A DNA stretch of 64,000 nt from Salinivirgaceae bacterium (GTDB lineage: Bacteria; Bacteroidota; Bacteroidia; Bacteroidales; SZUA-534). The notes under the pieces were generated by a model. That model did no database searches, had not been told where the DNA came from, and saw only the letters and a list, made by a program, of their open reading frames with translations. The position numbers and the translations under genes are program-made. The stretch is from the NCBI GenBank assembly GCA_017557605.1, contig JAFYYJ010000049.1, positions 4,664 through 68,663 on the forward strand, read 5' to 3'. This document shows, piece after piece, positions 6,436 to 64,000 of this stretch. Position 1 is the stretch's first letter. Each line of letters opens with the position of its first letter.

Positions 6436-6478
6436 GCATAAGCCATAAGGCAAAGGACATAAGCCATAAGTTGATAAG

Positions 6479-6527: not shown

Positions 6528-6556
6528 TAGCGTTTTTGTCAGCGTCAGTGTCAGCG

Positions 6557-7069: not shown

Positions 7070-7152
7070 AGATTTGTGTTTAAATTAAAAACACCATACC
7101 AGCCTTTGGTATTAAGGCATGGTATGGTGTCAAATATTGCAGCGTTTTCCGT

Positions 7153-8175: not shown

Positions 8176-8302
8176 AGTTCAGCAATTTTATGATTAAACA
8201 TTCTCAAAGATATACATTTTTTTATTGTTAATCATTTGCGATATAGATTATTGCATTTTGCCACCATTAACAACACTGGCTGGACTTACGCACCACAATT
8301 AT

Positions 8303-8689: not shown

Positions 8690-8744
8690 AGTGCAAACTT
8701 ACAATTTTGCAAGATTGTATCACAATTCTTTCAATCCTAATGAT

Positions 8745-8953
8745 TTGAGATATTGGTATGTTCCATTGTAAAACTCGGAAAGGCGTGTCGGGTCTTCGGG
8801 GAAACCTTCATTGGTCTTTTTGTCGTTCCCTTCGGGCACACAAATTCATATATCGGCGGTCGATTTCGACATCGTTGGCGAATTTCTCTTGCGTCAGACC
8901 GCGCAGCTTGCGTAGCTGAATAATGGTTTGCCTAGTTTTTCCTGTAGTGTCAT
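8745..8953 (-). pseudogene. possible degraded XRE-family helix-turn-helix gene
   Basis: The minus-strand translation gives TIIQLRKLRGLTQEKFANDVEIDRRYMNLCARRERQ, an HTH_3-like stretch. The only ATG (8953) is in a different frame, and the HTH frame hits TGA and then continues as ..FRVLQWNIPISQII. Confidence 0.3.
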
Positions 8954-9146
8954 TTTTGTGTTATATCGTTTCTTCAACAAAAGAACACCATTGTGGACGG
9001 TAATTCAACGGCCAATTGGTCGTGATGCTCGTTTTACGACTTACAATACTCGTAACACCCCATTATTTCACTTTTTTTCATCAAAATTGTATCCTTATTA
9101 TTATTTTTTCGTATGTTCGTGACTGGGAAACAAAAAAAAGGTAACA

Positions 9147-9383
9147 ATGGAGAATGATGTTTGTAAAAATCTTGATAAATGCCCAATTTTCGTGAAGGGC
9201 ATTCTGGTGAATGATTTTGCTGATTTGGCTTACAAAAACATGTACTGCCTGGTACCGGGGAAATACAAAACGTGCAAGCGTTATCTGGCGGCACAGGCAA
9301 CAGGCAAGCCCGTTCCGGAAAGCATCATGCCCAACTCGAGCAAGAGCCTTGAGGAGATTATCCAGATTATCAATTCAAAATAA
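9147..9383 (+). CDS. small hypothetical protein (78 aa, 4 Cys)
   Basis: ATG-initiated ORF in an otherwise empty intergenic region, with normal composition. I recognise no family. Confidence 0.45.
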   Translation: MENDVCKNLDKCPIFVKGILVNDFADLAYKNMYCLVPGKYKTCKRYLAAQATGKPVPESIMPNSSKSLEEIIQIINSK

Positions 9384-9396
9384 GACTCCTCTCCTT

Positions 9397-11088
9397 TCAA
9401 ACTTCCTTTATTTTATACACCACTCCGCTCATTGGCGGCATTTGCACGAACAAACCTGTTTCGTCGATGCTTTGTGCCGATTGCCGAATACTCAGGCTAC
9501 CGCCAAAAACAGCGGTAACCGAAACTTCGCCCATAGTGTTGAAGCCCATTGTCTGCCAGGCATGATTCGGAATATGAATATTGAAATCGCGGTCACTGCA
9601 AGCATCAAAATTGACAACAACAAGCATCGCTTCGCCCTCAACATGACGCAGATAAGCGTAAATCTTTGAACTGTCGACATTGCTGTTGGCCCACATCAAA
9701 TCGTAGAAGGCGCCGTCGGTAAAGCATTTTTCGGCTGTCGCCATTCGCAAAATTGAGACATATGTATCGCGCAGCCGGCGCTCACTGTCACTAAGCAAGG
9801 CGCTATCGGCCTTTCCGCCGTTATACCAGCGTTGAAAAGCCGGAACGTTGTAATAATCGAAGATTGTGGTGCGTCCGTCGTCGCCGCTAAAGCCCGATTC
9901 TCCATTGGCCGGTTCGCCCACCTCCTGCCCGAAATAGAGCATCAGCGCACCTTGGTTGATTGTAGCTGTGACTAGCATTGCCGGAATGGCTTTTTCGGCG
10001 CAACCCGCAAAGAAACGCGAGGCGATACGCTGCTCATCGTGGTTCTCCAAAAAACGGAGCATCTTATTGTTGATACCTTCAAGATTTTTCCAAGTTTGGG
10101 TGATGTCATAGGCTGGCGCGCCCCAGCAAGTTATTCCTCGCAACGTGTCGTAAAGGCCAACCTTGTCGTAGAGATAATCAAATCCACCCGTAAAAATATA
10201 ATCGCGATACATATTCGGATTATATACCTCAGCAACAAACTGAATGTCAGGATATTGAGATTTAACTTTGGCTATCGCGAAATGCCAGAACTCAACCGGC
10301 ACCATTTCGGCCATGTCGCAACGGAAGGCATCGACGCCTTTCTGCGCCCAATAGAGTAGAATATCAACCATTTTCGGCCACAAGACGGGCATCGGAGCAA
10401 ACTGCTTATGCTGATTGTTCATGTAATCGACACCATAGTTGAGCTTCACCGTCTCGTACCAATCATTAATCGACGGCCAAGCCGAGAACTGGTCGTTGCC
10501 GGTGGCTTTAGCCGGATTTTCCTCGTAAGTTGTCTGCAAATCGATATTGGTGCCCGAGCCGAATGGCAGATGCAACGGCTCGCCGGTGTAGTAGAAATCG
10601 TTGAGCGGCGAGAAATGCCACTCCTGACAGTCGTTTAGCCCGAAATCGGCCTCTGGCTTGACATCGGAATGATACTGACGCGCCACATGGTTTGGTACAA
10701 AATCAATGATAAACTTCAGACCTGCGGCGTGTGTACGTTTCACTAAATCGGCAAATTCTTGCATACGGTTAGGCACCGAAACCGCCAAATCGGGGTCGAT
10801 GTCATAATAATCGGTTATGGCATAGGGCGAACCGGCGCGGCCCTTGACTATGCGCGGATTGCCGCCAGGTATGCCGAATTTGTCGTCGGCTGTGCAACGG
10901 GCGTGCTCAATAAGCCCCGTGTACCAGATGTGGGTAAATCCCATTGACTTTATCTGCTTGAGAATGTGTGGAGTAAAATCGTTCATCTTCCCCACCCCGT
11001 TCTCCTCGCGCGAGCCGTTCAAAACCGGATTAGTGTTCTTGTTTCCGAACAATCGCGGCAAAACCTGATATATTGATATTAGTGACAT
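9397..11088 (-). CDS. GH13 alpha-amylase-family glycosidase, cytoplasmic (no signal peptide)
   Basis: 563 aa with the GH13 conserved regions FIIDFVPNHVA, GVDAFRCDMAEMVP, FVAEVYN and FLENHDEQR. Confidence 0.85.
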   Translation of the reverse strand: MSLISIYQVLPRLFGNKNTNPVLNGSREENGVGKMNDFTPHILKQIKSMGFTHIWYTGLIEHARCTADDKFGIPGGNPRIVKGRAGSPYAITDYYDIDPDLAVSVPNRMQEFADLVKRTHAAGLKFIIDFVPNHVARQYHSDVKPEADFGLNDCQEWHFSPLNDFYYTGEPLHLPFGSGTNIDLQTTYEENPAKATGNDQFSAWPSINDWYETVKLNYGVDYMNNQHKQFAPMPVLWPKMVDILLYWAQKGVDAFRCDMAEMVPVEFWHFAIAKVKSQYPDIQFVAEVYNPNMYRDYIFTGGFDYLYDKVGLYDTLRGITCWGAPAYDITQTWKNLEGINNKMLRFLENHDEQRIASRFFAGCAEKAIPAMLVTATINQGALMLYFGQEVGEPANGESGFSGDDGRTTIFDYYNVPAFQRWYNGGKADSALLSDSERRLRDTYVSILRMATAEKCFTDGAFYDLMWANSNVDSSKIYAYLRHVEGEAMLVVVNFDACSDRDFNIHIPNHAWQTMGFNTMGEVSVTAVFGGSLSIRQSAQSIDETGLFVQMPPMSGVVYKIKEV

Positions 11089-11112
11089 AGCTGAAGTTAT
11101 AAGTTACATTCC

Positions 11113-13149
11113 TTACTTTCTTCCCAGCAACCGCTGATAAACATTTGGTATGAACTGCCGTTGTAAGACGATTGCCGAACGCGCTGGTATATAGAGCTTT
11201 ATAGTCGATTTATCGTCAACGCTGGCAACCGAAGTCGGATACGACATAGCCTCATCGATGCGGCCGAAACCGCCAAACTGCAGCTCATCAGTGCTGAGCA
11301 ATATCTTGTATTTGCCCTCAACCACAGGTATCTCGAAATCGGTGTAGCTGCGTGTCGGATGAAAATTGAAGACAAACAGCAAATCACCGCGTGAGAACGA
11401 CAGAACCATATTCTCCTGGCTTACCAGCTGCGCGTAGAACGGGAAAATCTTGAGCAAATGACGCTCGCGAAGAAGATGCACAATAGCAACATCGAAAGCA
11501 TCCAAATATTTGTATTTCAAGTCATCGCGGTCAGCAAGACTCCATTGGCGCATTGCATATTTGTACGACCAATTGTTGCCCTCGCGCGGGAAGTCAATCC
11601 ATTCAGGATGCCCGAACTCGTTACCCATAAAATTCAGATAGCCGCCGCCGGCAGTAGCCATTGTCAGCAATCTTATCATCTTATGCAAGGCGATGCCGCG
11701 ATCAATCTGAAGGTTCTGCGTCGTGACAAGCATGCTGAAATACATCTCCTTGTCCATCAGCCAGAAAGCAATGGTCTTATCGCCCACAAGTGCCTGGTCG
11801 TGCGACTCGGCATACGAGATTGTCCGCTCGTCGGCACGTTTCGAGGTCAGTTCGTGGTAGATGTGTCCCAAATCCCATGACTCATCGTTCGGACTCTCTT
11901 TCAGCACTTTAATCCACATATCGGGAATTCCCATCGCCAGACGGTAGTCAAAACCTACACCGCCGTCGGCCAATGGCATCGCCAAACCTGGATAACCGCT
12001 CATCTCCTCAGCAATCGATATTGATTCTGGGTTAACCTGTTTTATCAACTTGTTGGCAAGCATAAGATAGACAATGGCGTCCTCGTCTTGCGTGCCGTTG
12101 AAATAAAGCTCATACGATGTAAAATCCTCACCCAAGCCATGGTTCAGATAAATCATGCTGGTAACACCGTCGAAGCGGAAACCGTCGAAATGGAACTCCT
12201 CAAGCCAGTATTTTATATTCGACAACAGGAAATGGATAACCTCGTCTTTCCCATAGTTGAAACAGTACGAATCCCACGCCGGATGCACGCCGCGGTCCCC
12301 GCTGTGGAAGAACTGATAGCGCGTTCCGTCGTAAAGGCCAAGACCTTCGTTTTCGTTCTTAACCGCATGAGAATGGACCAAATCCATAACCACACGGATA
12401 CCATTCTGATGACATTCGTCGATAAGGGCCTTGAGGTCGTCTGGCGTGCCAAACCGCGACGAAACAGCAAAGAAACTCGAAACGTGATATCCGAACGAGC
12501 CATAGTATGGATGCTCCTGAATGGCCATCATCTGAATGGTGTTGTAGCCAAGTTTTATGACGCGCGGCAGCACATTGCGGCGAAAATCGTTGAATGTGCT
12601 TACGGCCTCCTTCTCGCCTGCCATGCCCACATGAACCTCGTAGATGAATGGCTCGTCGGCTTTCGGACGTTCAGTGCATTTCCACTCATAAGGCTGCGGT
12701 GGACACCACACCTGCGCGCTGAAGATATTGGTTTTCGAATCCTGAACCACCCTTCGCGACCAAGCCGGAATGCGCTCACCCTCGCCACCGTTCCAGTAAA
12801 CCTTCAGACGGAAAATAGAGCCATGCCCGAACTGCGCTGCCGGCAGTTTCAATTCCCAGTTGCCACCATCGAGCGGTTTAAAATCGAAATCGGCACTCTC
12901 CTGCCAACCGTTTATGTCGCCAATAAGCGTAACCCGCATCGCATTGGGCAGCCATTCGCGGATAGTTGTTGTTTGTCCGTCGCAAAAAGTACCGTAATAC
13001 ATATAACCGTTGGCAAAATCGTAAAGCGACTGCTTGCCGCCACCCGTCAAGTGGGCCTCAACATCGGCGCAGTGCTGCATTCTGTCTGTAATTACTTGTC
13101 GGTAAGGATTCAACCAAGGGTCGTCCTTAACAATTTTTGGCACTTTCAT
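11113..13149 (-). CDS. glgB: 1,4-alpha-glucan branching enzyme (GH13, eukaryote-like subfamily)
   Basis: 678 aa with motifs VVMDLVHSHA, GFRFDGVTSM, IAEEMSGYPG and YAESHDQALVGDK. It lies 24 nt upstream of the GH13 gene. Confidence 0.9.
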   Translation of the reverse strand: MKVPKIVKDDPWLNPYRQVITDRMQHCADVEAHLTGGGKQSLYDFANGYMYYGTFCDGQTTTIREWLPNAMRVTLIGDINGWQESADFDFKPLDGGNWELKLPAAQFGHGSIFRLKVYWNGGEGERIPAWSRRVVQDSKTNIFSAQVWCPPQPYEWKCTERPKADEPFIYEVHVGMAGEKEAVSTFNDFRRNVLPRVIKLGYNTIQMMAIQEHPYYGSFGYHVSSFFAVSSRFGTPDDLKALIDECHQNGIRVVMDLVHSHAVKNENEGLGLYDGTRYQFFHSGDRGVHPAWDSYCFNYGKDEVIHFLLSNIKYWLEEFHFDGFRFDGVTSMIYLNHGLGEDFTSYELYFNGTQDEDAIVYLMLANKLIKQVNPESISIAEEMSGYPGLAMPLADGGVGFDYRLAMGIPDMWIKVLKESPNDESWDLGHIYHELTSKRADERTISYAESHDQALVGDKTIAFWLMDKEMYFSMLVTTQNLQIDRGIALHKMIRLLTMATAGGGYLNFMGNEFGHPEWIDFPREGNNWSYKYAMRQWSLADRDDLKYKYLDAFDVAIVHLLRERHLLKIFPFYAQLVSQENMVLSFSRGDLLFVFNFHPTRSYTDFEIPVVEGKYKILLSTDELQFGGFGRIDEAMSYPTSVASVDDKSTIKLYIPARSAIVLQRQFIPNVYQRLLGRK

Positions 13150-53064: not shown

Positions 53065-53757
53065 TTATTTCAGATAATAGTCGATAGTGGTAACCACTCT
53101 GACTTTCTTTATATGCGGTGTTGTATATTCCTCATTGATAGAGAATTGTCCTTGCGAAGCGAACTTAATGCTGCCCAAATCGCAACCAGCGTCCTGTGCG
53201 AATTTTTCAGCCACCTGACGGGCATTGCGCGTTGCCTCCTCAATCATCTCGGGTTTGAGAGAATTAAGGTTAGTGTACTGATATTCTGTCTGATTCTCAT
53301 ATGAATTTCCGCCAATGGCCACGCCCTTTTTCAGCAACTCCTGCTGCATTTTCATAATCGACATAACCTTTGGCACATCTGACGAAATGACGGTTATGGT
53401 GCAACTCGTCTGATAGCGCTCGCGCACGTTGTCCTGCGCCCAAGTCTGTGCCAGACGGTCAAGTACCGACGGAGCCGAAATGGTAATCTCATCGTCTTTT
53501 ATCCCATTCTGTTTCAAAAAGTTGACTATGGTGCGCTGTTTGGTTTCAATCAGGTCGTAGAGTTGGTGCATATCGTTGCCCACCTCGTTGAACGACAGAG
53601 GCCAAACAACTCTGTCTGCCAGGACCTCACGCTCCGCCAAACCTTTCACCGATACAAATCGGTCTTTATGCGCGTAATTGTCTATTCCGCAATAAATTAG
53701 GAAGCTGCCCAACACTATGCTGGCACCTAACACTAATGAATTAATATGCTCTTTCAT
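53065..53757 (-). CDS. SIMPL-domain (DUF541) protein
   Basis: 230 aa with an N-terminal TM/signal anchor. The sequence pattern is typical of SIMPL/BP26-like proteins (..VSVKGLAEREV.AD...W......). This is a family-level guess. Confidence 0.65.
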   Translation of the reverse strand: MKEHINSLVLGASIVLGSFLIYCGIDNYAHKDRFVSVKGLAEREVLADRVVWPLSFNEVGNDMHQLYDLIETKQRTIVNFLKQNGIKDDEITISAPSVLDRLAQTWAQDNVRERYQTSCTITVISSDVPKVMSIMKMQQELLKKGVAIGGNSYENQTEYQYTNLNSLKPEMIEEATRNARQVAEKFAQDAGCDLGSIKFASQGQFSINEEYTTPHIKKVRVVTTIDYYLK

Positions 53758-54605: not shown

Positions 54606-55007
54606 TTAACTGATATAAACCAATCCGTCTTCGCGATACAAATCCACTTTACTGTCCGACGAAACGAGCGTGTAATTGTCTGCAATAGAGAGCGATATCA
54701 GGAATCTGTCAAAAGGGTCTTTGTGCTTTTCTTTTTTAGGAAGCCTTTTGTACTGTTCGACAGCCGACACGGGCAATTGAATTATCTCAATATTTTGCTC
54801 GTTGCAAAACTGCACTAAATCAGATATTTCCAATCCTTGCAAATCTAATTTCCCGATTGAAAGTTTGATTGCGATTTCCCAAAGGGATACGGTGGAAACA
54901 AATACCTTGTTTTCAGGATTTTCCAATATACGAAGCACCCCTTTCGAGATTTCTTGCGGTGATATTGCAAGCCATATAAGAATGTGAGTGTCAATCAGAT
55001 ATTTCAT
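54606..55007 (-). CDS. vapC: PIN-domain toxin (VapC family)
   Basis: MKYLIDTHILIW...SLWEIAIKLSIGKL...HKDPFDRFLISLS carries the PIN acidic residues. Its ATG overlaps the antitoxin stop as ATGA (55007..55004). Confidence 0.85.
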   Translation of the reverse strand: MKYLIDTHILIWLAISPQEISKGVLRILENPENKVFVSTVSLWEIAIKLSIGKLDLQGLEISDLVQFCNEQNIEIIQLPVSAVEQYKRLPKKEKHKDPFDRFLISLSIADNYTLVSSDSKVDLYREDGLVYIS

Positions 55008-55216
55008 AAAATGCACATTTCTTCTTCGGTCATTTCCCAATTATCGGAAAAATGCGCTTTTGCGGTTTTTGAGAACTTTCCGAACACACGTTTCGTTGTT
55101 GGTTTGTTTTTAGGCGTCATATTGAGTTTATAAAGCGATAACGCCAAATCGTAAACCATTAACTGCTGCTGTTCAGTCAGTGTTTTATAGGTCTTTTCAA
55201 GAACATCGAAACTCAT
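55004..55216 (-). CDS. cognate antitoxin (DUF2281-like small protein)
   Basis: 70 aa, translationally coupled upstream of the PIN gene. It has a helical N-part and a C-terminal DNWEMTEEE-type tail. Confidence 0.6.
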   Translation of the reverse strand: MSFDVLEKTYKTLTEQQQLMVYDLALSLYKLNMTPKNKPTTKRVFGKFSKTAKAHFSDNWEMTEEEMCIL

Positions 55217-55347: not shown

Positions 55348-56688
55348 CTATTCTGGTGTTAACGGTGGAAAATTTCCCCCATCATCTCCTTCATAAATGG
55401 GTGGACATTCAACACAGTCGCCAAGACCTTCACTTTCCCATATCCACGCATTGGCGTACCAATGTGCCTCCATCGAACGCCACTTATTGATTGCCGCTTG
55501 AGCATTTGAACGGGTGGAAAAGCAACCGTCGCACAGGCGATAGACTGTCTTACCATTTGACGTGCATTTATATATCCAACACTCCATTCCATCGGGTAGC
55601 CATCCATTATGTATCCGAGCACTGTCCAATGTGCTGTGACTTTGCAAAACAACATAGTAAACCGTAGGAAGCCCGTTTATTTTGACAGGTGTGTTGCTCA
55701 ACTTGACATACTTGCTGTTGACATAGCCCTCAACATCGCCGATACGAACCTTCCACCACGCGCCCTGATTGCTTATCAGTTTTGCTCCATCAAGATTGGT
55801 TGCAAGCACGCCAACCACGTCAGAATCGGCATCGGGAAAGTACCTGATATTCACATAACCATCATCTGCTATCGAATATACAAGTTCTTCGCCAACGGAA
55901 ACCGCTTCCTTCTTTTTAGCCAAATTTGCATCGGTAACATCATCGCTCTCCTCAACAATCAGCCAATTCCCTTTTATCTTTTTGATAACTAAATATGAAG
56001 GATAGTTTTTTCTGTCCTCTTTGGGTGAAGTCTGCACCAACTTGTTGAAATGCACTTTTATACTACCATCAGAAGCGTTCGTCACTTCAAAATTTGAAAT
56101 CATTTGCAAGAAATTAGGTGTTTTGGTAAACAAGTCACGCTTCGATTTAACAATCATTTCGGGCGTATAGGTCTGTTGGTAGTATTTTACTTGGGGCGCG
56201 TAAATATTGATAAAGTCTTCGGCTTTTTTCGATGTGTGTACGTCATCCCATTTTTTTGCTAATTCTATGGCAATATCGTTTGTTGTAATGGTCTTAACGG
56301 ATTGTTCCGTTTTATTGTTGCTGTTTGTTACTGATTGTTCCGTTTTATTGCTGCTGTTTGTTCCCGATTCTTTCGTCACAAGCATAGTTACCAACCCGAC
56401 AACAACCACTAATGCAATTATGCACAGGGTAATCATCAAACCTTTTTTGACCTTTTTGTTTTGAATCTCTTTATTCATCGCGACAAAAAGGTCATAATAT
56501 GGGTCGTCTTTTATATTCCCTGTGTCAATTGAATTATTTTGTATACCCCCATTAGTTTGTGCATCGTCATTTGAATTATTATCGCTGACAATGTTTTCTT
56601 CAGGCAACCACTGCTTACAGAACTTACACTTTTTTGCTACTGCAAGAATCTCATTGCCGCAATATGGACATATCTTCGTTTCGCTCAT
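55348..56688 (-). CDS. zinc-ribbon / TM / NTF2-like / SH3b / SPOR-domain membrane protein (last gene of the candidate operon)
   Basis: 446 aa. It has the ribbon CPYCGNEILAVAKKCKFC and the TM segment LMITLCIIALVVVVGLVTMLV. An SH3b-like segment (YVNIRYFPDADSDVVGVL...WWKVRIGDVEGYVNSKYV) and a SPOR-like C-terminus (YYVVLQSH..LDSA......YRLCDGCFSTRSNAQAAINK) follow. Confidence 0.7.
   Translation of the reverse strand: MSETKICPYCGNEILAVAKKCKFCKQWLPEENIVSDNNSNDDAQTNGGIQNNSIDTGNIKDDPYYDLFVAMNKEIQNKKVKKGLMITLCIIALVVVVGLVTMLVTKESGTNSSNKTEQSVTNSNNKTEQSVKTITTNDIAIELAKKWDDVHTSKKAEDFINIYAPQVKYYQQTYTPEMIVKSKRDLFTKTPNFLQMISNFEVTNASDGSIKVHFNKLVQTSPKEDRKNYPSYLVIKKIKGNWLIVEESDDVTDANLAKKKEAVSVGEELVYSIADDGYVNIRYFPDADSDVVGVLATNLDGAKLISNQGAWWKVRIGDVEGYVNSKYVKLSNTPVKINGLPTVYYVVLQSHSTLDSARIHNGWLPDGMECWIYKCTSNGKTVYRLCDGCFSTRSNAQAAINKWRSMEAHWYANAWIWESEGLGDCVECPPIYEGDDGGNFPPLTPE
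56297..56362 (-). repeat. 33-nt in-frame tandem duplication (2 copies, 2 mismatches)
   Basis: The units are acggattgttccgttttattgttgctgtttgtt and actgattgttccgttttattgctgctgtttgtt. They encode (S/T)NSxNKTEQSV twice in the extracytoplasmic linker. Confidence 0.85.
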
Positions 56689-56704
56689 AACACTCTTTTA
56701 TTCA

Positions 56705-57112
56705 TCAATTACGTGGAAACGAGCGGATTAATGTGATTGCTGCGTTTATCTCATCGGCATCGTTGAACCATTCTGACGAACTTGCTTCGCTTGCAACCAT
56801 TTCGTTTTCAACCGATGAGTTTTCCACTACTTGTTGTGTATCGATGTTTGAATCTATCAATTGAGTTTCATCTTCATTAGCAATTGGGGATTCAGTAACA
56901 TCCTCACTCTCTTGTGTTCGAGTATCATCAAGTCTCTCTCCACAATATGGGCAAACATCAGCGTTGCTGTCGATTTCTTCACCGCAAAACGGGCAAACTT
57001 TTTTTTCGACGGCAATTTCTTCGGATTCAAGTTGCTCGCCGCAAATTGGGCAAACCACAGCGTTGCTGTCAATTTCCTCGCCGCAATATGGACATTGTTT
57101 GTTTTGGCTCAT
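56705..57112 (-). CDS. soluble double zinc-ribbon protein with an acidic C-terminal tail
   Basis: 135 aa. The two ribbons CPYCGEEIDSNAVVCPICGEQL and CPFCGEEIDSNADVCPYCGERL reflect a 99-nt internal duplication (gcgttgctgt at 56961 and 57060). There is no TM segment. Confidence 0.75.
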   Translation of the reverse strand: MSQNKQCPYCGEEIDSNAVVCPICGEQLESEEIAVEKKVCPFCGEEIDSNADVCPYCGERLDDTRTQESEDVTESPIANEDETQLIDSNIDTQQVVENSSVENEMVASEASSSEWFNDADEINAAITLIRSFPRN

Positions 57113-57115
57113 ATC

Positions 57116-58084
57116 CTAATCTCTTAACAATTCGCCCATCGAGAACGAACCTGATATTTCCTGTATCTCAATCTGCCCACGCAAAATGGCGAAGAAAAAC
57201 TCACGTATGTTTTCATAAGTCAAAGGTTTAGTCGTTCCGTCAGCCGACGGACCAAGGTCGTACGCTTTAAGCAATTGTGTCCCTAATGCAGCTGCCGTTA
57301 GCAGAAAATGATTTTGGAATTTGTCAACGTCAAGCATATCGGCTGCCAAAACTTTTCCGACAACAGTATATGAATAATATGATTTCTGCGTATTTTCATC
57401 GGTCAGGCTTGTCTTAACGTTATCAGCATCAATATTCATCGGTATTCTACCTGATTCGGGTGCTTGTTGGTTACCTTTGAACAGACCGCCAAGGTCGGCA
57501 AGTGAAAGATTGAAGAATTTAGTGTCGGCGGCGACAATCATTCTTTCCTGTGAAAAGGCAGTCGGTAAGAGAAGTTGAATGATTCCGCTTGAGTTTACCG
57601 ATGGTGCGTTGAATGTGCCTATAATGCAATCTTTCAACTCGATTGTATTGGTGGCAAACACACCGCCAATTACAACGCAGTTGTCTAATACAACATCATC
57701 GGCATACACGCTGCCAGCCACAAATGCGTTTGTGAGCGTAACTTCTTTTGCGTTAACATCAGAGCAGAACGACACAGCAGCATTCATTGCCCTTGATGTT
57801 ACGCTTTTGGCTGACGCTACTGATTTCAAGAAACTTACAGTTCCTTCAGCACTTGAATTGACATATATTTCCTGTTGTGCGAAAACCGCGCCTTTTATCT
57901 CAACATTGCCACTTTCAACAGTGATTTTGTTGGCATAAACGGCACCTTCAACAATGGTGTCTTTCTGAATGGTTACTGTTCGCGACAGTTCCGTAATCTT
58001 TTCGGGAAGTATTCCGCTTTTAACAAGGTTTCCGTTAAGTTTAAGGTCGTTCCCATTTACTCTTATTTCTTTTAGCCCGTCCAT
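57116..58084 (-). CDS. bactofilin-like beta-helix protein with an unassigned C-terminal domain
   Basis: ATG 58084 is preferred; the track start at 58096 is TTG. Residues ~45-165 show repeated short beta-rungs (IVEGAVYANKITVESGNVEIKGAVFAQQEIYV...VAGSVYADDVVLDNCVVIGGVFATNTIELKDCIIG). Confidence 0.6.
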   Translation of the reverse strand: MDGLKEIRVNGNDLKLNGNLVKSGILPEKITELSRTVTIQKDTIVEGAVYANKITVESGNVEIKGAVFAQQEIYVNSSAEGTVSFLKSVASAKSVTSRAMNAAVSFCSDVNAKEVTLTNAFVAGSVYADDVVLDNCVVIGGVFATNTIELKDCIIGTFNAPSVNSSGIIQLLLPTAFSQERMIVAADTKFFNLSLADLGGLFKGNQQAPESGRIPMNIDADNVKTSLTDENTQKSYYSYTVVGKVLAADMLDVDKFQNHFLLTAAALGTQLLKAYDLGPSADGTTKPLTYENIREFFFAILRGQIEIQEISGSFSMGELLRD

Positions 58085-58088
58085 AGTG

Positions 58089-59297
58089 TTATCCAATAAA
58101 AAGTTTGCTGATAGTATTAGTTACGCGTAAGTTATGCTCGCTATTTGAGTTGTTGTATGCGCTTTGCATCATTGCATTGAAAAATTTCTTCACATTTTCT
58201 TGTTCCAAATCGCTGTGTGTCTGCGTGTTGTTCGACAAAAACACATTGTCGGCAACACCTTGCACCACTTGCTCTGGCAACTGCTTTTTGTCGTATGCGC
58301 ACAACTGATTGACAATGTTCCCCTTGTCTGTTGTTTCAAAGTAGCACACTGGCAGATAATATTCATAATCACCCGCCCTGATGCTTGTTATTGAACTCAA
58401 TTGGATAGCTTTGTCGGTTTGTTTTTGAATCGACAGGAAATCGAGTGCTTGCGTCATTGTCCGTTGCGCTCTCTTTTTGGCACTTGCCGCAAGTATTTGT
58501 GAAGTCAGAACTGAATTTTCGCTGGCAACGATTGACGATACTTCTGCCGAGCCTGTATCAAGCATTCGTTTACTCGAATTGTCAACCAAGGCCGACATTT
58601 TGAATATTGGCTCATCAATCGCTTTCACTCTGTTTTCGAGTTCTTTATTGAGGTCGGTTATTGTTTTGGTATATCTCGCTTTTACTCGTTGATATTCGCT
58701 TTCCATCTGCTCTTTCAAAGCAACCAGCCGTTTTTTCTGCTCGTGCAGATGCATAAGCCTTGACTCAACGCGCTGGCTCAATTCAAGGATTTTTGTGCTG
58801 ATTTCGGATTGCACATTCTTGAAAAAGCCTGTGATTATGGTTGATGCTACTTGTCTTGAATTTGCGGTTATCGAAGCCACTTGCGCGGCTTCGGTAGCGG
58901 CGACACTGCCCGTCAGCAAGTTTATATTATTGTTGCACCCCGATATGCTATTGTCGAAAGGATTAGTGTCAACATCAATGTTTACCTCAACAGTTTCCTC
59001 GTGAGAAAGGTCGTGATTGTCAGATTCTCCTTCATAACCAATGTCGATATGGCTCTTATCGCCATTGAAATTGATTTTAATAGAGCCTTGCCTTAAAGTT
59101 AAGAAATCTCGTATATCGGTTCTCACAACCTCAACATGGTCATAATCTAAATCAGGAATGGTATGACCATTCTTGTCCAGAATAAAGTAAGACCCTGGGC
59201 GAAGCACGATTCTATCCTTTATCCTTACTAAAGGTTCTTCAACCTCAACATTCAGCGGAATATTGATGTTTTTCTCAAATTGTTCTGTGTAACTCAT
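58089..59297 (-). CDS. hypothetical coiled-coil protein, paralog B (402 aa, extra N-terminal domain)
   Basis: ATG 59297 is preferred; the track start at 59345 is GTG and overlaps the upstream gene. The core aligns with 59308..60222 (GFF..VQSEISTKI...RVESRLMHLHEQKKRLVALKEQMESEYQRVKARY..TITDLNKELENRVKAIDEPIF). Confidence 0.7.
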   Translation of the reverse strand: MSYTEQFEKNINIPLNVEVEEPLVRIKDRIVLRPGSYFILDKNGHTIPDLDYDHVEVVRTDIRDFLTLRQGSIKINFNGDKSHIDIGYEGESDNHDLSHEETVEVNIDVDTNPFDNSISGCNNNINLLTGSVAATEAAQVASITANSRQVASTIITGFFKNVQSEISTKILELSQRVESRLMHLHEQKKRLVALKEQMESEYQRVKARYTKTITDLNKELENRVKAIDEPIFKMSALVDNSSKRMLDTGSAEVSSIVASENSVLTSQILAASAKKRAQRTMTQALDFLSIQKQTDKAIQLSSITSIRAGDYEYYLPVCYFETTDKGNIVNQLCAYDKKQLPEQVVQGVADNVFLSNNTQTHSDLEQENVKKFFNAMMQSAYNNSNSEHNLRVTNTISKLFIG

Positions 59298-59307
59298 AGC
59301 CGTACAA

Positions 59308-60222
59308 TTAGAGAGTTTGCATTTGTGAGTTCTCGAACAAGGCACTTGTCATTTCCCGCACTCTTTCAGAAGTCTCGCTTGCGGCAACAAGTTTTGAAAA
59401 TTCCTGACGCACAATGTCATTTGTGCCTGAATCAACCCAATTAAGGTCTGATGCCATTTCGTATATCCGACTGTTTATTTCTTTAACATTCTGGCTTGTA
59501 GTGTTTTCTGGAACAAACGCTTCGTATGCTGTATTCCCTCGGTTGTCTATTTGTGATTCGATAATGGCAACAGGCAGATGTTCAACGCCTTCCGAACTCT
59601 TAATGCTGCGAAGCAATATCTTTTCAGATATTATTTTCTGCTCATTCATCTGCCGCAAAAAATCCTTTGTCGATTCTATAACTTTTGTGCTGTTATATTT
59701 CATATTCGACATTGCAATTTGCTGGCTCGCAGTAATATTTTCAGCTTGGCATATTGGCACGATGGCCGACAAATGCTGATTACGTCCGAAATTGCAAGCC
59801 ACATCGCGTGTGGCAAAATTGAATATCGGTCGGTCGAGTTCCATCACACGTTGTTTCAGAGCTTTGTTCAACCCTGTAATAATGCGCATATATCGAGCTA
59901 CTATCATTTCGTAGTTGTGTTCCATTGCCGTCTTTACTGCGACAAGCCTCTTCTTTTGTGCTACAAGTTCCATCAAAAGCGAATCGACACGGCTCTGGTG
60001 GGCTGCTATTTTCTGCGAAATCTGCGAATGCATCAGCGAGAAGAATCCCAAGTTCACGTTTTTGCACACGTGGTCCGCACCTTCCTTTTCTGCTAACACC
60101 ACTGCCGACTGGAAAGTAACAACAGCCGCTGTTGTGGTTTTGACGTGCGCAGATACGGTTTCGATGCTTTCGGCCATCGGCTTGGTATCAACTACGCAAT
60201 CTATTGTATGTGTTGTGGACAT
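59308..60222 (-). CDS. hypothetical coiled-coil protein, paralog A (304 aa)
   Basis: The core is GFFSLMHSQISQKIAAHQSRVDSLLMELVAQKKRLVAVKTAMEHNYEMIVARYMRIITGLNKALKQRVMELDRPIF. I recognise no family. Confidence 0.7.
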   Translation of the reverse strand: MSTTHTIDCVVDTKPMAESIETVSAHVKTTTAAVVTFQSAVVLAEKEGADHVCKNVNLGFFSLMHSQISQKIAAHQSRVDSLLMELVAQKKRLVAVKTAMEHNYEMIVARYMRIITGLNKALKQRVMELDRPIFNFATRDVACNFGRNQHLSAIVPICQAENITASQQIAMSNMKYNSTKVIESTKDFLRQMNEQKIISEKILLRSIKSSEGVEHLPVAIIESQIDNRGNTAYEAFVPENTTSQNVKEINSRIYEMASDLNWVDSGTNDIVRQEFSKLVAASETSERVREMTSALFENSQMQTL

Positions 60223-60253
60223 AATTTCTCATTTAACTGTTATCAATCGGAAT

Positions 60254-62500
60254 TTATTTCTTGCGTTTACGTTTTTCTTCCTTTTTCTTCTCTTCAATCA
60301 GTGTGTCCATTAGATTCTGTACACTTTGTTTTTTCTCCGAATCCAATTCTATGTGGGTATCAGTTTCTTCCTGCGTCTCGTCTGCCGCAACAGTTGGTTC
60401 TTCTTGTGCATCATTTGGTGTTTCTGTCGGTTCTTCCTGTGTCTCATCTGGTGTATCTGTTGGTTCTTCCTGAACATCTTCGTTAGATTCCTCAACAAAT
60501 TTGAACCCTTCGTTGTCCAGTGTTTCCTCTTCCTCTGTATCCGCTACATTTTCCTGATTATCATCAGTATTGGCATCTTCGGCATTTTCCGCACCTTTTG
60601 CATCTTGCGTTTCGACGGCACCTTCATCTTTTGCTTCATTGTCTTCAGGTGCTCCGACAATAAACATATCGTTCAAATCCTGAAGGGCGTTATCGGCAAG
60701 TGCCGTCAGATTCAGCGACAAATCATCGAATGTGGCATCTTCAACTTTCGGCATCGGCGGCAGCTCGGAATCTTTAGCAAGCAACGGGTTAATTGATGCA
60801 AGCGGTTTACGACGTTCATCGAGTTGCGACACTTCGTTCGATGCAACGGCCACTTTGTTAGAGTATCCGTCTTGCAGTTTTGCATCGTAATACTCAACGT
60901 GACCAAATTCGGTGGCACGGTTTTCGATGTCCTCTTGCAAGCGGTCCATAAAATCATTGAAGTCGTCTTGGACAGCTTGGAATTCCGATGCTTGCAATTC
61001 AAACGAAGCCGCAGTTTCTACCGAATTATCGGCTTCTTGCACAATGGCAGAATCCAAACCACCCTCACGCTTCATTGTTTCTTCGGTCTTTTTCAATTGC
61101 GTTAGAGTGTTGAAAGCCTCAACATATTCGCTCAACGTTCTTTGCATATTGTTGATAATGTCGGCGCTTTGCTCTTGGCTCGAACGATAGAAAGCATCCA
61201 CATCCTGATGCCATTTGTTTACATAGCTTACCTTCTGGTCGTGAATTTGATTGTAAATTTTCAGACGCTCTATGCGGTTCTCGCCCATAAGATTATGAAC
61301 CACGGGCGCAACGATTTCCTCATATATCTGGTGAACACCAAATGGCACAATTGTATTGCTACCATCTTCAGCTGCCCACATATCCGACAGCAAATTGTAA
61401 CGAACCCGCGAACTTTCGCGCAGTGTAAATGGTTCGTAACCTTGAACCGAGTCGGAATAATCAAATCTTTCATTTTTGATACGTTGTATTTCCTCGGCTT
61501 CAAGAATCGGCGAATAATGGTTGTATGGTGATTTTAATAACTTAAACAACAAGTTGTTAGATTTGTTAACCATTTTGTCAGTCGATGCCAATTTCATCGA
61601 TGATATTGTTTGAATCGACCTTGCCACAGTTGAGATTAACTTTTGCAGAACATCCTCGAAATTCTGTGTTTCCGATGACAATGAATCTTTCAACTTATTG
61701 AGCTCCTGGAATTTCTTCACGCTCTGCTCATATCTTTCCTTGTCAAACACATCAATTACGGTAGCATTCTCTGGCAAGGTGTTGGTGGCATATTCCTGCA
61801 AATAATTCAAATATTCGCTGTTGTCGTGAACAAGCGGCAGGTTGACAGAGTTTGTTTCTATATCATTCATACAGAAAGCGATAGTCCGCATCGAACGGTC
61901 GAGCTGCCCCGTGTAATCGCCTTGATTGACTTCCTGAATCGAAAGCGAGTATTGGTCGGTTTCAATTGTTTCTGGCTCGTTTGATGTCTCAACAACAGGC
62001 ACATTTTCCGACAGATAATTAAGTTGAGAAATGGCGTTGGCTAACAATTCATTCTGCCGCGACATTTGCAGCGTTACCTGACTTTGTGCCACGTTGCCCG
62101 AATAATCGACAATGAAACTGTTGTCGTCATACTTTATTTGTTCTGCAACAGGCACGTAGGCAACACCCATTTTGGTGACTTTGTAGTCACGGAATATGTT
62201 TTGGTGTTTGGTTTTCTCCTCGTCAATCTTTTGGTCGATTGCCGCAATCTGCTTTGTGTATTGGCTCTTTTTAACCCAATACATAAAGAATGCCACAATT
62301 GTGAGAAGCCATTTCCACGAAGCGGAACGCGCTTGTTCCACAACCGCCTTGTCCTCTTCCAATTCTTCGATTCTTTTTTCAATCTTCTCTTCCTCTGCCA
62401 CTATGCGCTCTGCGGCTTGCTGGTAATAGTTGAAGAGAATTTTGGCCTCGTCTTGATAAATATTACTCGACTCCTTAAAAATTTTACCTGTTGCTGGCAT
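60254..62500 (-). CDS. 748-aa single-pass membrane protein with an N-terminal coiled coil, a large unassigned domain and an acidic repeat tail
   Basis: The ATG start was checked. The TM segment is WKWLLTIVAFFMYWV (about aa 62-76). The C-terminus has QEEPTxTP repeats and ends EEKKKEEKRKRKK. Confidence 0.75.
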   Translation of the reverse strand: MPATGKIFKESSNIYQDEAKILFNYYQQAAERIVAEEEKIEKRIEELEEDKAVVEQARSASWKWLLTIVAFFMYWVKKSQYTKQIAAIDQKIDEEKTKHQNIFRDYKVTKMGVAYVPVAEQIKYDDNSFIVDYSGNVAQSQVTLQMSRQNELLANAISQLNYLSENVPVVETSNEPETIETDQYSLSIQEVNQGDYTGQLDRSMRTIAFCMNDIETNSVNLPLVHDNSEYLNYLQEYATNTLPENATVIDVFDKERYEQSVKKFQELNKLKDSLSSETQNFEDVLQKLISTVARSIQTISSMKLASTDKMVNKSNNLLFKLLKSPYNHYSPILEAEEIQRIKNERFDYSDSVQGYEPFTLRESSRVRYNLLSDMWAAEDGSNTIVPFGVHQIYEEIVAPVVHNLMGENRIERLKIYNQIHDQKVSYVNKWHQDVDAFYRSSQEQSADIINNMQRTLSEYVEAFNTLTQLKKTEETMKREGGLDSAIVQEADNSVETAASFELQASEFQAVQDDFNDFMDRLQEDIENRATEFGHVEYYDAKLQDGYSNKVAVASNEVSQLDERRKPLASINPLLAKDSELPPMPKVEDATFDDLSLNLTALADNALQDLNDMFIVGAPEDNEAKDEGAVETQDAKGAENAEDANTDDNQENVADTEEEETLDNEGFKFVEESNEDVQEEPTDTPDETQEEPTETPNDAQEEPTVAADETQEETDTHIELDSEKKQSVQNLMDTLIEEKKKEEKRKRKK
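60393..60480 (-). repeat. imperfect 33-nt in-frame tandem repeat (about 3 copies) encoding the acidic QEEPTxTPxxx tail
   Basis: The units start at 60393, 60426 and 60459 (gttggttcttc.tgtg.atcat.tggtgt.tct). Confidence 0.6.
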
Positions 62501-62515
62501 ATCATTGGGTATTTA

Positions 62516-63232
62516 TTAGTTATACATTTTTTTGCGGTTCTCAACTATATGTTTGAGCAAACCTATCTGTTTGGCTATGTTTGTCTCGTTTGCTTTGTAA
62601 TTGTAAAAAGCGGCGGTCACTTCATCGGCTTTTTCCACAAAACTCTTCTCGATTTCGTGTGCGGCATCGGTTCTCAATGGCGATATGAAACGGATGTCGC
62701 GTTGTAAGCCTTCAATCATATTTCTGATGCTTGGGTCAACACCTTCGGTGATGAATGCCGAATCTTGCAGTCTTTGTGCTGCATTTTTCATTTCGGTTAG
62801 ATACTCGGTTTGCTGTTGCTTGCTCTTGCCAACATTCCTAACCTGTTCGGCTGCCGAATAACTGAAATATTGGAACAGAACCAAGAAAAAGATAAGTATG
62901 CCGTGTATAAGAAGTTGGTATTTGATGCTTACTGGCGATATGAACGGCAAATAATTCATAAACAGTACAAGCGCGATTGCCACAATCGAGTACACATTGA
63001 GCGATACAAGGTTGATTCCCAACGAGCCTATCCACGAATCGTCTTCGTCGTTGCTGCGCTCCCATTTCACAAACAGAATCCAAACGAAAGTCACGTATGC
63101 GAGTGAGCAAACTATTCCGTTCAACCACAGAATGTTATTGGGTAAATTGCCTCTGAACAACAAAAGCAGCGCAATAATCAGCACCTCGCCTAAAAGCGCT
63201 GCAAAAACCGCAAAGAATTTTCTCATATTCAT
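62516..63232 (-). CDS. four-TM membrane protein with a helical cytoplasmic C-terminal half
   Basis: 238 aa with four hydrophobic helices in the first ~125 aa and then an amphipathic helical region. Its start lies 3 nt after the stop of the SPFH gene. Confidence 0.7.
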   Translation of the reverse strand: MNMRKFFAVFAALLGEVLIIALLLLFRGNLPNNILWLNGIVCSLAYVTFVWILFVKWERSNDEDDSWIGSLGINLVSLNVYSIVAIALVLFMNYLPFISPVSIKYQLLIHGILIFFLVLFQYFSYSAAEQVRNVGKSKQQQTEYLTEMKNAAQRLQDSAFITEGVDPSIRNMIEGLQRDIRFISPLRTDAAHEIEKSFVEKADEVTAAFYNYKANETNIAKQIGLLKHIVENRKKMYN

Positions 63233-63235
63233 AAC

Positions 63236-64000
63236 TTATTGACGTTTAAAACCACACGAAGGACAAAAAACGGCTGTCGGTTGAAGTCTAACACCACAAC
63301 GCGGACACACATTAGGGTCGGCAGTTGCCACAGGCGTGCCGCAGACACTGCAAAAAGCGGCTCCTGCGGCTAATGGCGTTCCACAATTACTGCAAGTACT
63401 TGCGGTTGCACCAGCATCGGTATTGCCTAACTGTGCCCCACAACTCACACATCTTTTTGCATTTTTCCTATTATCGGCTCCACAACGTGGACAAGGGTTG
63501 TATTCCGTCCCGCAGTTGGGGCAGAACCGTTCTGTCGATAATCTTTTCTTTGAACAATTTGAACAGAAGATTGTTTTGGGCTTGTTGTTTTGCTGCGCTG
63601 CCGCTGCCATTCCTTGCTGCCCAACATTCTGCGCTCCGCCTTGTGCGCCAAACGGTTGATTGTATTGTGGTTGAATCAATCCGCCACCCATCGAGCCCTG
63701 CATATTGTTCATCATATTCAGCGCCATCAAACTACCTAAAAGACCACCTCCACCTTGATTGCCCATTTCTCCAATTTTATCAAGGGCTTTATCGTATAAA
63801 TCAAAGGCTCGTTCTTGTTGATAAGTGTGGCCTTTAAGTTTATATTTCGTTTGTTCGGCAAAACTCTGGCGAATGTCTTTTCCGAGTTCTGTAGACTCGT
63901 CAATTTCAATATTTGTAATACGGAATAATAGCATTTTTATGCCGTATTCTTCCCAAAAATCCGAAACGCAATCCTTCAAATAATTTGACAATGGTATTAA
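63236..64000 (-). CDS. SPFH/Band-7 (YdjI-type, 'virion core protein-like') protein fused to four zinc ribbons; N-terminus outside the window
   Basis: The ORF is open to the window edge; the track start at 63991 is only an internal TTG. The end of an SPFH-like domain (FWEEYGIKMLLFRITNIEIDES..LGKDIRQ) is followed by a Gly/Gln/Met-rich linker and then 4x CxxC-N11-13-CxxC. Confidence 0.6.
   Translation of the reverse strand, partial: LIPLSNYLKDCVSDFWEEYGIKMLLFRITNIEIDESTELGKDIRQSFAEQTKYKLKGHTYQQERAFDLYDKALDKIGEMGNQGGGGLLGSLMALNMMNNMQGSMGGGLIQPQYNQPFGAQGGAQNVGQQGMAAAAQQNNKPKTIFCSNCSKKRLSTERFCPNCGTEYNPCPRCGADNRKNAKRCVSCGAQLGNTDAGATASTCSNCGTPLAAGAAFCSVCGTPVATADPNVCPRCGVRLQPTAVFCPSCGFKRQ

Follow-up and report, generated by a model that had tools for sequence, protein, structure and literature searches.

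The soluble SPFH protein YdjI of the Bacillus subtilis membrane-stress operon pspA-ydjGHI (samGHI) needs YdjG and YdjH for its recruitment to the membrane and itself recruits the polymer-forming PspA (PMC8581546; bioRxiv 10.64898/2026.02.06.704340), and bactofilins are morphogenetic scaffolds with an M23 peptidase as partner (PMC10945521). Here we describe a Bacteroidota operon in which an SPFH protein and a bactofilin, one from each of these scaffold families, are combined with members of four families of unknown fold. The operon was analysed in a 64,000-nt stretch of a Salinivirgaceae bacterium genome (GenBank assembly GCA_017557605.1, contig JAFYYJ010000049.1, positions 4,664 to 68,663; hereafter the window), in which eight open reading frames (ORFs, genes 1-8) occupy the minus strand between positions 55348 and 64000. 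Genes 1-6, encoding an SPFH-zinc-ribbon protein, a protein with four transmembrane segments, an orphan of 620-845 aa, two long-helix paralogues and a divergent bactofilin, constitute a core whose order is conserved in four orders of the phylum; this six-gene module is horizontally mobile and, in one clade of relatives, is an integron-type cassette.

The comparison with YdjI rests on gene 1. Within the window only its 3′ part is found (63236..64000, minus strand), encoding part of the SPFH domain (Band_7_1), a Gly/Gln/Met-rich linker and four zinc ribbons; the frame carries no stop up to base 64000 and so leaves the window, as originally predicted. DNA beyond the window was read from the same contig in a public metagenome assembly (locus L001, 157.9 kb), where the full-length gene (L001:5671-6987) encodes 438 aa and matches Pfam Band_7_1 at 121.3 bits (E = 5.8e-35), the SPFH domain lying mostly outside the window; the window part gave four matches to Pfam Zn_Ribbon_1 and two to DZR. 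No segment of the protein reached the hydropathy threshold for a transmembrane span. A Band_7_1-type SPFH domain, no transmembrane segment, a low-complexity linker and C-terminal ribbons are also the architecture described for YdjI (PMC8581546), and by its predicted domains gene 1, which was present in about 64 loci, is of the YdjI/SamI type, in agreement with the original prediction. The likeness extends to the surroundings of the gene, since in both operons a soluble SPFH protein is encoded beside membrane proteins and a polymer-forming (here, candidate polymer-forming) protein, and in Salinivirgaceae the ribbon-transmembrane arrangement of gene 8 recalls YdjG (PMC11237479).

There are also differences. 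No PspA/IM30 was recognised in the operon by Pfam or NCBIfam searches of the eight proteins, nor among the Pfam families of 57 members of the gene 4/5 family, and no YdjH-type TPM protein is present, gene 2 and its 43 orthologues being without a TPM match. For YdjI, one zinc-finger motif (PMC8581546) or C-terminal ZnR domains (PMC11237479) were described, against four ribbons in gene 1. Of a YdjG-type partner, which has two ribbons, a transmembrane segment and an NTF2-like ectodomain, gene 8 offers a ribbon and a transmembrane segment, the NTF2-like part was not detected, and the gene is restricted to Salinivirgaceae. Furthermore, five of the six core genes have no counterpart in pspA-ydjGHI, the hosts are Bacteroidota and not Firmicutes, and the module is mobile. 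Having neither PspA nor YdjH, the operon is, as far as its predicted products tell, not a Psp/Sam operon.

To define its distribution, relatives of gene 6 were scanned in one genome per GTDB species (185,579 species representatives of all phyla) and were detected in 205 of them; 80 loci were fetched. By tblastn with the window proteins, the order and strand of genes 1-6 were kept in essentially every one of these loci that had enough upstream DNA, with median gaps of 9-22 nt within the core across the genome loci, and the six-gene order, recorded in about 70 loci, spans Bacteroidales, Flavobacteriales, Chitinophagales and Sphingobacteriales. The carriers include Capnocytophaga granulosa ATCC 51502, C. 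periodontitidis, Lutibacter, Labilibaculum, Draconibacterium and Dysgonomonas, and the genome nearest to the window is a Salinivirgaceae metagenome-assembled genome (MAG) from buffalo rumen. At the protein level, 1583 relatives of gene 6 (~57-65% identity across the phylum), about 1981 of gene 3 (each source-named taxon belonging to Bacteroidota) and, among 1.84 billion proteins, 649 representatives of the gene 4/5 family (50% clustering) were collected; the source names were nearly all Bacteroidota, the exceptions being a few MAG bins labelled Clostridia, Bacilli or Deltaproteobacteria. Gene 6 sequences differ at codon positions 1:2:3 in the proportion 10:2:91, a coding-type substitution pattern, and this together with the recurrence of the six-gene order across loci excludes chance. 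Conserved synteny across Bacteroidota, on which the original prediction had staked itself, is very strong. Module GC content follows that of the host across the loci (range 0.32-0.58), so most copies are long-term residents. No conserved flanking gene was found beyond close relatives in an all-against-all BLAST of the flanking ORFs. Three loci (L052, L053 and L063, at about 6175-10981) hold four-gene variants with genes 3-6 only, genes 1 and 2 not being adjacent; these are accompanied by a secreted HAD acid phosphatase upstream and by TPR-LuxR and Kelch proteins downstream. Public records name gene 1 'SPFH domain-containing', genes 2-5 'hypothetical', and gene 6 'hypothetical', 'polymer-forming' or 'CcmA'.

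Horizontal mobility was evident from nucleotide comparison of the relatives. The module, together with a leader of ~290 nt and a tail of ~350 nt, displays 87-90% nucleotide identity among a Chitinophagales MAG, Bacteroidales MAGs and Labilibaculum filiforme, and this cross-order similarity ends at the module edges; exact-protein look-ups placed the same cassette in many contexts. A segment of 7811 nt is shared at 100.000% identity by L099:6707-14517 and L105:185-7995, the flanks of which are unrelated, and additional copies (L091:2209-9796, L094:4822-12409 and L095:4754-12409) bring the identity among unrelated contexts to 99.5-100%. Identity begins at GTTACAAGC and ends with ...CATACCGCnnnCCG/TTR, the slash marking a break between G and TT, and the L099/L105 identity stops exactly at this G/TT, an integron-type junction. 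An imperfect inverted repeat resembling attC occupies the last ~130 nt of the cassette (L091:9662-9800); it has TAAC and GTTR ends, answering to the RYYYAAC/GTTRRRY type expected of attC sites, and in it TTGTAAC...CGGTAT...TTGCCGA on one side faces TCGGCAA...ATACCG...CCG/TTR on the other, so that the single-stranded tail is predicted to fold into a bulged hairpin. In locus L092 the end of the previous repeat abuts the cassette start, and downstream of the cassette in L091 (10540-14445) single short ORFs (SIMPL, 167-aa, AhpC-like and 178-aa) are each followed by a 250-280-nt repeat with CTAAC...GTTAG ends, which looks like an integron-like cassette array in Bacteroidales-type contigs. The relatives thus share with integron cassettes the start GTTACAAG, the ~130-nt inverted-repeat end, the TAAC...GTTR termini, the G/TT break and the occurrence in arrays; they differ from them in measuring 7.8 kb, in holding six genes and in having a conserved 290-nt leader, a typical cassette consisting of one promoterless ORF.

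A recombinase was identified in the L. filiforme isolate, where a tyrosine recombinase gene (L027:2308-3390, plus strand) lies 90 nt upstream of the cassette start and is co-directional with it; none was found in the other loci examined. Its residues 67-357 of 360 align with positions 4-330 of IntI1 at 27% identity, and in that alignment a gap of 30 residues falls exactly at the IntI-specific insertion. The recombinase-associated rAID-1 arrays of Bacteroidales begin at the 5′ end with an XerD-like recombinase, after which come genes in the same direction that are separated by integron-like repeats, the criteria being a recombinase at least 44% identical to BF9343_RS08045 and genes of low GC (10.1101/471110). 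Since the L. filiforme recombinase is without the IntI-specific insertion, the arrangement looks more like rAID-1 arrays than a classical integron, a likeness of architecture only that comprises the co-directional recombinase of L027 and the repeat arrays of L091-L097. In a Chitinophagales MAG, a 191-nt direct repeat (L029:3396-3586 and 11027-11217, 85% identity) brackets the module. The upstream copy is a truncated cassette tail, with the cassette start immediately after it, and at the same locus a TAnnTTTG box stands 164 nt upstream of gene 1.

The leader and tail contain apparent 'genes' of 88-89 aa and 117-129 aa, which were rejected as non-coding: their substitutions fall equally on the three codon positions, and their indels do not come in multiples of three. 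These non-coding regions (L107:501-770 and L099:14168-14521, with equivalents in about 23-30 loci) diverge by about 6-10%, compared with 28% at gene 6 synonymous sites, and are thus more conserved than the latter. A 22-bp hairpin right after gene 6 (L029:10985-11068) has its pairing kept by compensatory changes, and no Rfam family covers the cassette leader or tail. A sigma-54 promoter read by eye in the leader (TGGCAC...TTGC) was dismissed for its wrong spacing. An AAA+ ATPase was likewise discarded as a component of the module: the AAA genes of L099-L103 represent the insertion site, the AAA frame runs into the non-coding leader, and the same cassette occurs elsewhere without bracketing AAA genes. 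Around the window module no attC-like ends or cassette motif were found. As to other vehicles, gene 6 had no tblastn match in 50,697 phage or 72,556 plasmid records and none in IMG/VR, PHROGs matches were restricted to generic zinc ribbons, and Foldseek against BFVD returned nothing significant; a prophage, plasmid or virus origin was ruled out on these grounds.

In the window itself, the ORF list returned all eight minus-strand ORFs at the coordinates predicted, with intergenic gaps from gene 1 to gene 8 of 3, 15, 31, 10, 4, 3 and 16 nt when ATG starts are taken. Upstream of gene 1, L001 has a 330 nt spacer and then unrelated genes, namely a small ORF that is HTH-like by eye (L001:5193-5474), a Bro-N/Fic gene (L001:3974-4843) and two LytS-type kinases, so gene 1 is the first gene of the operon; a TAnnTTTG box of Bacteroidota type is found just ahead of it in many loci. 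Downstream of gene 8, a 131-nt spacer carrying a TATATTTG box precedes a VapBC-like toxin-antitoxin pair on the minus strand, a 70-aa ORF plus a PIN-domain gene (54606-55216), and because this pair has its own TATATTTG box, the operon ends with gene 8. The original prediction of an operon of at least eight genes starting outside the window therefore held in that the genes form one tight operon and the 5′ part of gene 1 lies beyond base 64000; the conserved unit, however, comprises six genes, not eight or more, and L001 provides no further operon genes upstream. The stretch at ~54-64 kb has a GC content of 0.41-0.43 versus 0.467 in the rest of the window, the module lying ~4 GC points under its surroundings, which suggests a genomic island.

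Gene 6 (57116..58084, minus strand, 322 aa) encodes a predicted bactofilin-type β-helix followed by a conserved C-terminal helical region. In its AlphaFold2 model (predicted local distance difference test, pLDDT, 82; predicted TM-score, pTM, 0.84), β-strands run continuously over residues ~36-240, and the ~80-aa C-terminal region is highly conserved with the motif DKFQNHF. BacA (2n3d) gave the only meaningful Foldseek superposition of the model (target TM-score 0.67, root-mean-square deviation 3.1 Å over 118 columns, 23% identity), with a Foldseek E-value that was not significant. All 27 of the 27 orthologues matched Pfam Bactofilin at E ≤ 0.1 (best 8.1e-6), and PF04519 is precomputed on two gene 6 orthologues. 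Model, superposition and orthologue matches together are consistent with the bactofilin-like β-helix proposed for this protein. A left-handed acyltransferase helix was rejected, as the TM-scores with LpxA and GlmU amounted to just 0.13-0.17. Gene 6 departs from BacA and CcmA in having a helix about twice as long (~200 aa) and a unique C-terminal region of ~80 aa. Bactofilins are further known to partner with penicillin-binding proteins and ParAB/PadC; the known partners are absent here, and gene 6, the four-gene variants aside, is always linked to an SPFH protein and four orphans.

Genes 4 and 5, here designated parA (59308..60222, minus strand, 304 aa) and parB (58089..59297, minus strand, 402 aa), belong to an orphan family and are paralogues as claimed, being 33% identical over 224 aa (BLASTP, E = 3e-27); gene 5 is always the next gene after gene 4, from which it is separated by a median of 9 nt. 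The AlphaFold2 model of gene 4 (pLDDT 79) contains a very long helix (residues 14-147), a second helix (160-202) and a small C-terminal α/β domain (219-300). The 134-residue helix is predicted at a pLDDT above 90, as would be expected for a coiled-coil rod. Gene 5 has an N-terminal extension of ~100 aa in the lineage of the window, orthologues elsewhere measuring 332-355 aa. Foldseek found nothing in the PDB for the gene 4 model, and a profile of the gene 4/5 family had zero PDB hits. That these paralogues might be PspA/ESCRT-III proteins was rejected on the empty PDB profile search, on the absence of a helical hairpin from the gene 4 model and on an hhalign probability of 0.2% against E. coli PspA, which, with the Pfam and NCBIfam searches, agrees with the initial statement that no PspA/IM30 is recognisable.

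The two remaining core genes encode membrane-linked orphans. Gene 2 (62516..63232, minus strand, 238 aa), always located between genes 1 and 3, has four N-terminal transmembrane segments (hydropathy segments 7-25, 37-55, 68-98 and 101-119) and a soluble C-terminal region of ~110 aa that is presumably cytoplasmic. It had no significant match in Pfam, NCBIfam, PADLOC or PHROGs, and the 43 orthologues had no consistent Pfam match; a TelA/XpaC-like pair was dropped, as just one of the 43 touched Halogen_Hydrol (E = 0.003). Gene 3 (60254..62500, minus strand, 748 aa) consists of an N-terminal part of ~55 aa, a hydrophobic anchor, ~550 conserved residues and a variable acidic tail ending in a basic patch, with a mean column identity of 73% over 610 aa in 34 orthologues and no match in Pfam or PDB profile searches. 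The tail (60254-60670) contains 32 Glu and 17 Asp in 138 aa, and the net charge of the whole protein is −75. Tail length varies, and some orthologues (P0444, P0489, P0411; L119:5667-8018) end in extra modules, namely Rho_N/LEM-like HeH, zinc ribbon and ribosomal L12 C-terminal domains. The anchor is weak in the window copy (KD19 0.92) and reaches KD19 ≥ 1.6 in 21 of the 34 orthologues, where it is a good transmembrane candidate, and in the cassette clade an amphipathic helix takes its place, a replacement compatible with attachment to the cytoplasmic membrane face. Since Lys/Arg residues are more frequent after the anchor than before it (3.2 versus 1.9), the bulk of the protein is probably cytoplasmic. 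Described beforehand as a single-transmembrane coiled coil with an acidic tail, gene 3 keeps the tail from that description; it has a large conserved orphan domain rather than merely a coiled coil, and the transmembrane segment is weak in the window. A link to TerB was discarded: UniRef names the Dysgonomonas termitidis protein (P0413) 'TerB-C domain-containing', but TerB_C was absent when this protein and nine other orthologues were scanned with Pfam.

Taken over the eight window proteins, no Walker A motif was detected by a regular-expression scan and no catalytic domain by Pfam, NCBIfam, PADLOC or PHROGs; with the motif scan included, no nuclease, ATPase, NTPase, protease, TIR or Sir2-type module was found, and the prediction that enzyme motifs are missing agrees with all of these searches. 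Genes 2, 3, 4 and 5 yielded nothing credible in Pfam, NCBIfam, PHROGs or PADLOC, so that two of the core proteins belong to known families, gene 1 to Band_7_1 and gene 6, loosely, to the bactofilins, and the other four are without a Pfam, NCBIfam, PADLOC, PHROG or PDB match. No N-terminal hydrophobic (signal-like) segment was seen by hydropathy in genes 1 and 3-6. Among other SPFH systems, flotillin-NfeD and HflK/C-FtsH also place an SPFH protein beside a multi-transmembrane partner (here gene 2) and probably form an oligomeric membrane platform, but gene 1 lacks an anchor of its own, gene 2 has no NfeD match and no FtsH-type protease is present. An analogy is offered by the anti-phage systems Zorya and Kiwa, inner-membrane multi-protein complexes that are found in defence islands and spread horizontally. 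The operon differs from them in having no significant match to them, in lacking a MotAB-like stator and in showing neither a nuclease nor any other effector domain: in PADLOC-DB v2.0.0 the eight proteins returned nothing credible, the best hits being ZorA (E = 0.0039), where the match covers a coiled-coil stretch, and LmuB (E = 0.0018), where it falls on the acidic tail or ribbons of gene 7.

No assignment to a known defence, phage, Psp, Ter or TelA system was obtained with Pfam, NCBIfam, PADLOC and PHROGs, with PDB searches for genes 1, 3, 4/5, 6 and 8, or with Foldseek for genes 4 and 6. In the literature searched no description of the operon was found, and nowhere in it were a bactofilin and an SPFH protein found described together. 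We therefore rate the operon as apparently outside every described kind of system, a rating that rests on negative searches. The original prediction had named assignment to a characterised module and lack of synteny as the two outcomes that would overturn it; the database check it called for (Pfam and PADLOC, with Foldseek on genes 4 and 6) showed no overlap with a characterised module, and neither outcome was observed. Of its central claim, a candidate undescribed scaffold system, the undescribed operon stands, and the scaffold function is best put as a proposal.

Our tentative reading, which we hold to be quite possible, is that the core operon encodes a mobile sub-membrane protective scaffold without a recognisable enzyme. 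In this model the four-transmembrane gene 2 protein and the anchor of gene 3 would hold the complex at the inner membrane, on its cytoplasmic side, and recruit the soluble SPFH protein of gene 1. The latter would oligomerise as SPFH proteins do, its four ribbons may serve as interaction modules, and the resulting platform could nucleate or hold a polymer of gene 6 and the long-helix pair of genes 4 and 5. The logic would be that of SamGHI/YdjGHI, YdjI/SamI being the one relative with an experimentally understood role, with PspA replaced by a bactofilin plus a coiled-coil pair, and the job may be to stabilise or repair the membrane under attack by phages or by contact-dependent or secreted toxins, or under membrane-active stress. 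A protective role is proposed because the module is accessory, horizontally spread and often located among defence genes. The analysis itself establishes which genes are present, their conservation, the operon structure, the mobility, the domains of genes 1 and 6 and the models for the folds of genes 4 and 6; membrane topology, binding partners, polymerisation and protective role are what we infer. If correct, the reading would describe a new type of membrane-associated machine in hundreds of Bacteroidota species, including human oral and gut as well as rumen bacteria, and would raise the questions of what a soluble YdjI-type SPFH protein does without PspA, what bactofilins do outside cell-shape control, and whether physical membrane reinforcement can be a transferable defence. 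Cultured carriers are at hand in Capnocytophaga granulosa ATCC 51502, Labilibaculum filiforme, Dysgonomonas termitidis and Barnesiella sp. An55.

Several points weigh against the protective scaffold. The contacts proposed among the six proteins, like the polymerisation of gene 6, are presumed, and the model leans on genes 1 and 6 alone, the other four having no detectable relatives of known function. Even for these two parts, the window copy of gene 6 scores 19.8 bits against Pfam Bactofilin (PF04519; cut-off 27.9), and the four-gene variants of L052, L053 and L063 imply that the SPFH platform is not strictly needed next to genes 3-6. The model of gene 4 has a pTM of 0.30. Gene 3 carries many invariant His, Asp, Glu and Cys residues over ~600 aa and could be an enzyme or effector that the searches did not recognise as such, in which case a purely structural reading would fall. 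As for the protective part, two recently mobile lineages are over-represented in the count of defence neighbours, and housekeeping genes of matching GC surround many of the resident copies, a setting as compatible with an ordinary cellular function as with a protective one.

The composition of the module invites a further explanation, namely that it supplies the shell or skeleton for a transferable structure inside the cell or derived from its membrane, for instance a membrane microcompartment or a vesicle-forming apparatus, in which a patch of membrane would be enclosed or shaped by a filament lattice and SPFH cages. Closed cages of SPFH proteins on membranes are on record (cited in PMC10936438), and the acidic tail of gene 3, in a protein with the net charge given above, could bind cations or basic cargo. 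The module is, besides, self-contained, transferable and without a recognisable enzyme. Organelle-type gene clusters are likewise self-contained and transferable, which speaks for this explanation. However, no cargo, transporter or enzyme gene is consistently linked to the module and nothing indicates a lumen or cargo, so that this is speculation from composition only, and we regard it as highly improbable.

The genomic neighbourhood bears on both the protective scaffold and a dedicated immune function. Conflict genes were found near the module in at least 8 of ~16 distinct annotated contexts, a raw count without a genome-wide background. They comprise EcoO109I-type and Eco57I-type restriction-modification, REase-ARP, SLFN_AlbA_2, Fic (twice) and the PIN pair; GmrSD-type (DUF262) genes just downstream in three independent lineages (L107:8410-10236, L119:12146-13837 and L073 at about 9698); and a Pycsar pair (PycTM plus cyclase) after the module in L105 and L106. 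By comparison, the 142 nearest neighbours in ~45 genome loci are mostly housekeeping genes with few strong PADLOC matches. As the module is mobile and often stands beside defence genes, a role in defence or conflict is as plausible as a housekeeping scaffold.

With these neighbours in view, including the Bro-N/Fic gene and PIN pair at the window locus, the operon could be an immune system dedicated to phage defence, working through abortive infection or through a block to DNA entry. Infection would then be sensed at the membrane by the SPFH-ribbon protein together with the cytoskeletal parts, and gene 2 and/or gene 3 would be the effector, causing membrane collapse or an entry block; the output would be killing or exclusion, and not membrane maintenance as in the protective scaffold. 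The patchy distribution (the 205 species representatives) and the horizontal transfer of a discrete cassette with integron-type ends in cassette arrays are in line with such a system, the more so as phage-defence systems are reported to be abundant in integron cassettes (10.1101/2024.07.02.601686, 10.1101/2024.07.02.601719) and these cassettes, like Bacteroidales recombinase-associated arrays, are known to store defence and immunity genes (these two studies and 10.1101/471110). The eight proteins nevertheless had no PADLOC match and no nuclease, ATPase, NTPase, protease, TIR or Sir2-type module. Six proteins without a recognisable catalytic domain are, to our knowledge, unusual for a defence system, which counts against an immune function. 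Moreover, genes 3 and 6 remain ~60% identical across the phylum despite a GC content adapted to the host, ribosomal, rpoC, Rnf or LpxB genes surround many copies, and defence models are just mildly in excess among the immediate neighbours. On balance we judge a dedicated immune system to be unlikely.

A broader version, in which a bactofilin and coiled-coil lattice with no recognisable enzyme, kept beneath the membrane by an SPFH platform, is an immune or protective machine that acts physically against phage entry or membrane-targeting toxins and has spread as an unusually large integron-type cassette (7.8 kb, six genes) mobilised by a non-IntI tyrosine recombinase, appears doubtful, though worth entertaining. 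If true, a bacterial cytoskeletal polymer would act directly in defence, and the integron-like capture systems of Bacteroidota would move whole multi-gene machines. A six-gene operon that is an integron-type cassette beside a non-IntI recombinase bears on how Bacteroidota exchange adaptive genes.

Genes 7 and 8 are lineage-specific accessories of the window operon, confined to four Salinivirgaceae loci. Gene 7 (56705..57112, minus strand, 135 aa) encodes a soluble double zinc ribbon with an acidic tail, matching Pfam DZR, Zn_ribbon_3 and Zn_Ribbon_1; apart from the window, its orthologues are found only in the Salinivirgaceae loci L011-L013, apparent matches elsewhere being gene 1 ribbons. Gene 8 (55348..56688, minus strand) encodes a zinc ribbon, one transmembrane segment (residues 86-104) and an ectodomain with an SH3b and a probable SPOR domain. 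From the domains ascribed to it, the ribbon, the transmembrane segment and SH3b (Pfam SH3_3, 31.4 bits versus a cut-off of 27) were recovered, SPOR was weak (18.3 bits versus a cut-off of 21 in Pfam; E = 0.17 with the DamX SPOR, 2lfv), and the NTF2-like part was not detected in Pfam and PDB searches. In its relatives in L011 (10972-13281) and L012 (11400-13724), the ribbon-transmembrane head is kept and the ectodomain consists of WG repeats. The seven CxxC...CxxC ribbons announced for three proteins were all recovered by regular-expression scan and confirmed by Pfam, with four in gene 1, two in gene 7 and one in gene 8, and the 5′ coding DNA of genes 7 and 8 is 79% identical, so the ribbon module has been duplicated. 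As genes 7 and 8 occur only in Salinivirgaceae, the link to the cell wall through SH3b and SPOR is a lineage-specific add-on, and the claim that the system as a whole spans to the cell wall fails.

This add-on is relevant to the possibility that the operon is a cytoskeletal module for shape, division or polarity, with a membrane-anchored bactofilin and coiled-coil proteins resembling intermediate filaments, coupled in Salinivirgaceae to septal peptidoglycan via gene 8. The SH3b and probable SPOR domains would suit that role, as would the bactofilin-type fold of gene 6, the long rod-like helices of genes 4 and 5, and the many loci with housekeeping neighbours and a standard promoter box of their own; bactofilins are, moreover, the morphogenetic scaffolds described above (PMC10945521). 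Nonetheless, a module restricted to 205 species representatives and absent from close relatives cannot be a core morphogenetic machine, the cassette moves between orders and recurs at 100% identity in different contexts, gene 8 with its wall-binding part is limited to one family and has its ectodomain swapped, and no peptidoglycan enzyme, ParA/MinD-type or FtsZ-linked partner is ever in the operon. We consider a morphogenetic module improbable.

Two further observations concern the neighbouring genes. A SIMPL gene (PF04402) is the next cassette after the module in L091 (9851-10573), and the same gene is found in L092, L093, L095 and L097; the window has a SIMPL gene at 53065-53757, 1.6 kb downstream of the operon. 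The recurrence may be coincidence, because the L091 SIMPL gave no tblastn match to L001. Besides, the module adjoins rpsL-rpsG-fusA in both orientations in different lineages, with these genes downstream in L007, L022 and L024 and upstream in L025, L095, L096 and L098, and rpsL-rpsG-fusA may be a preferred insertion site.

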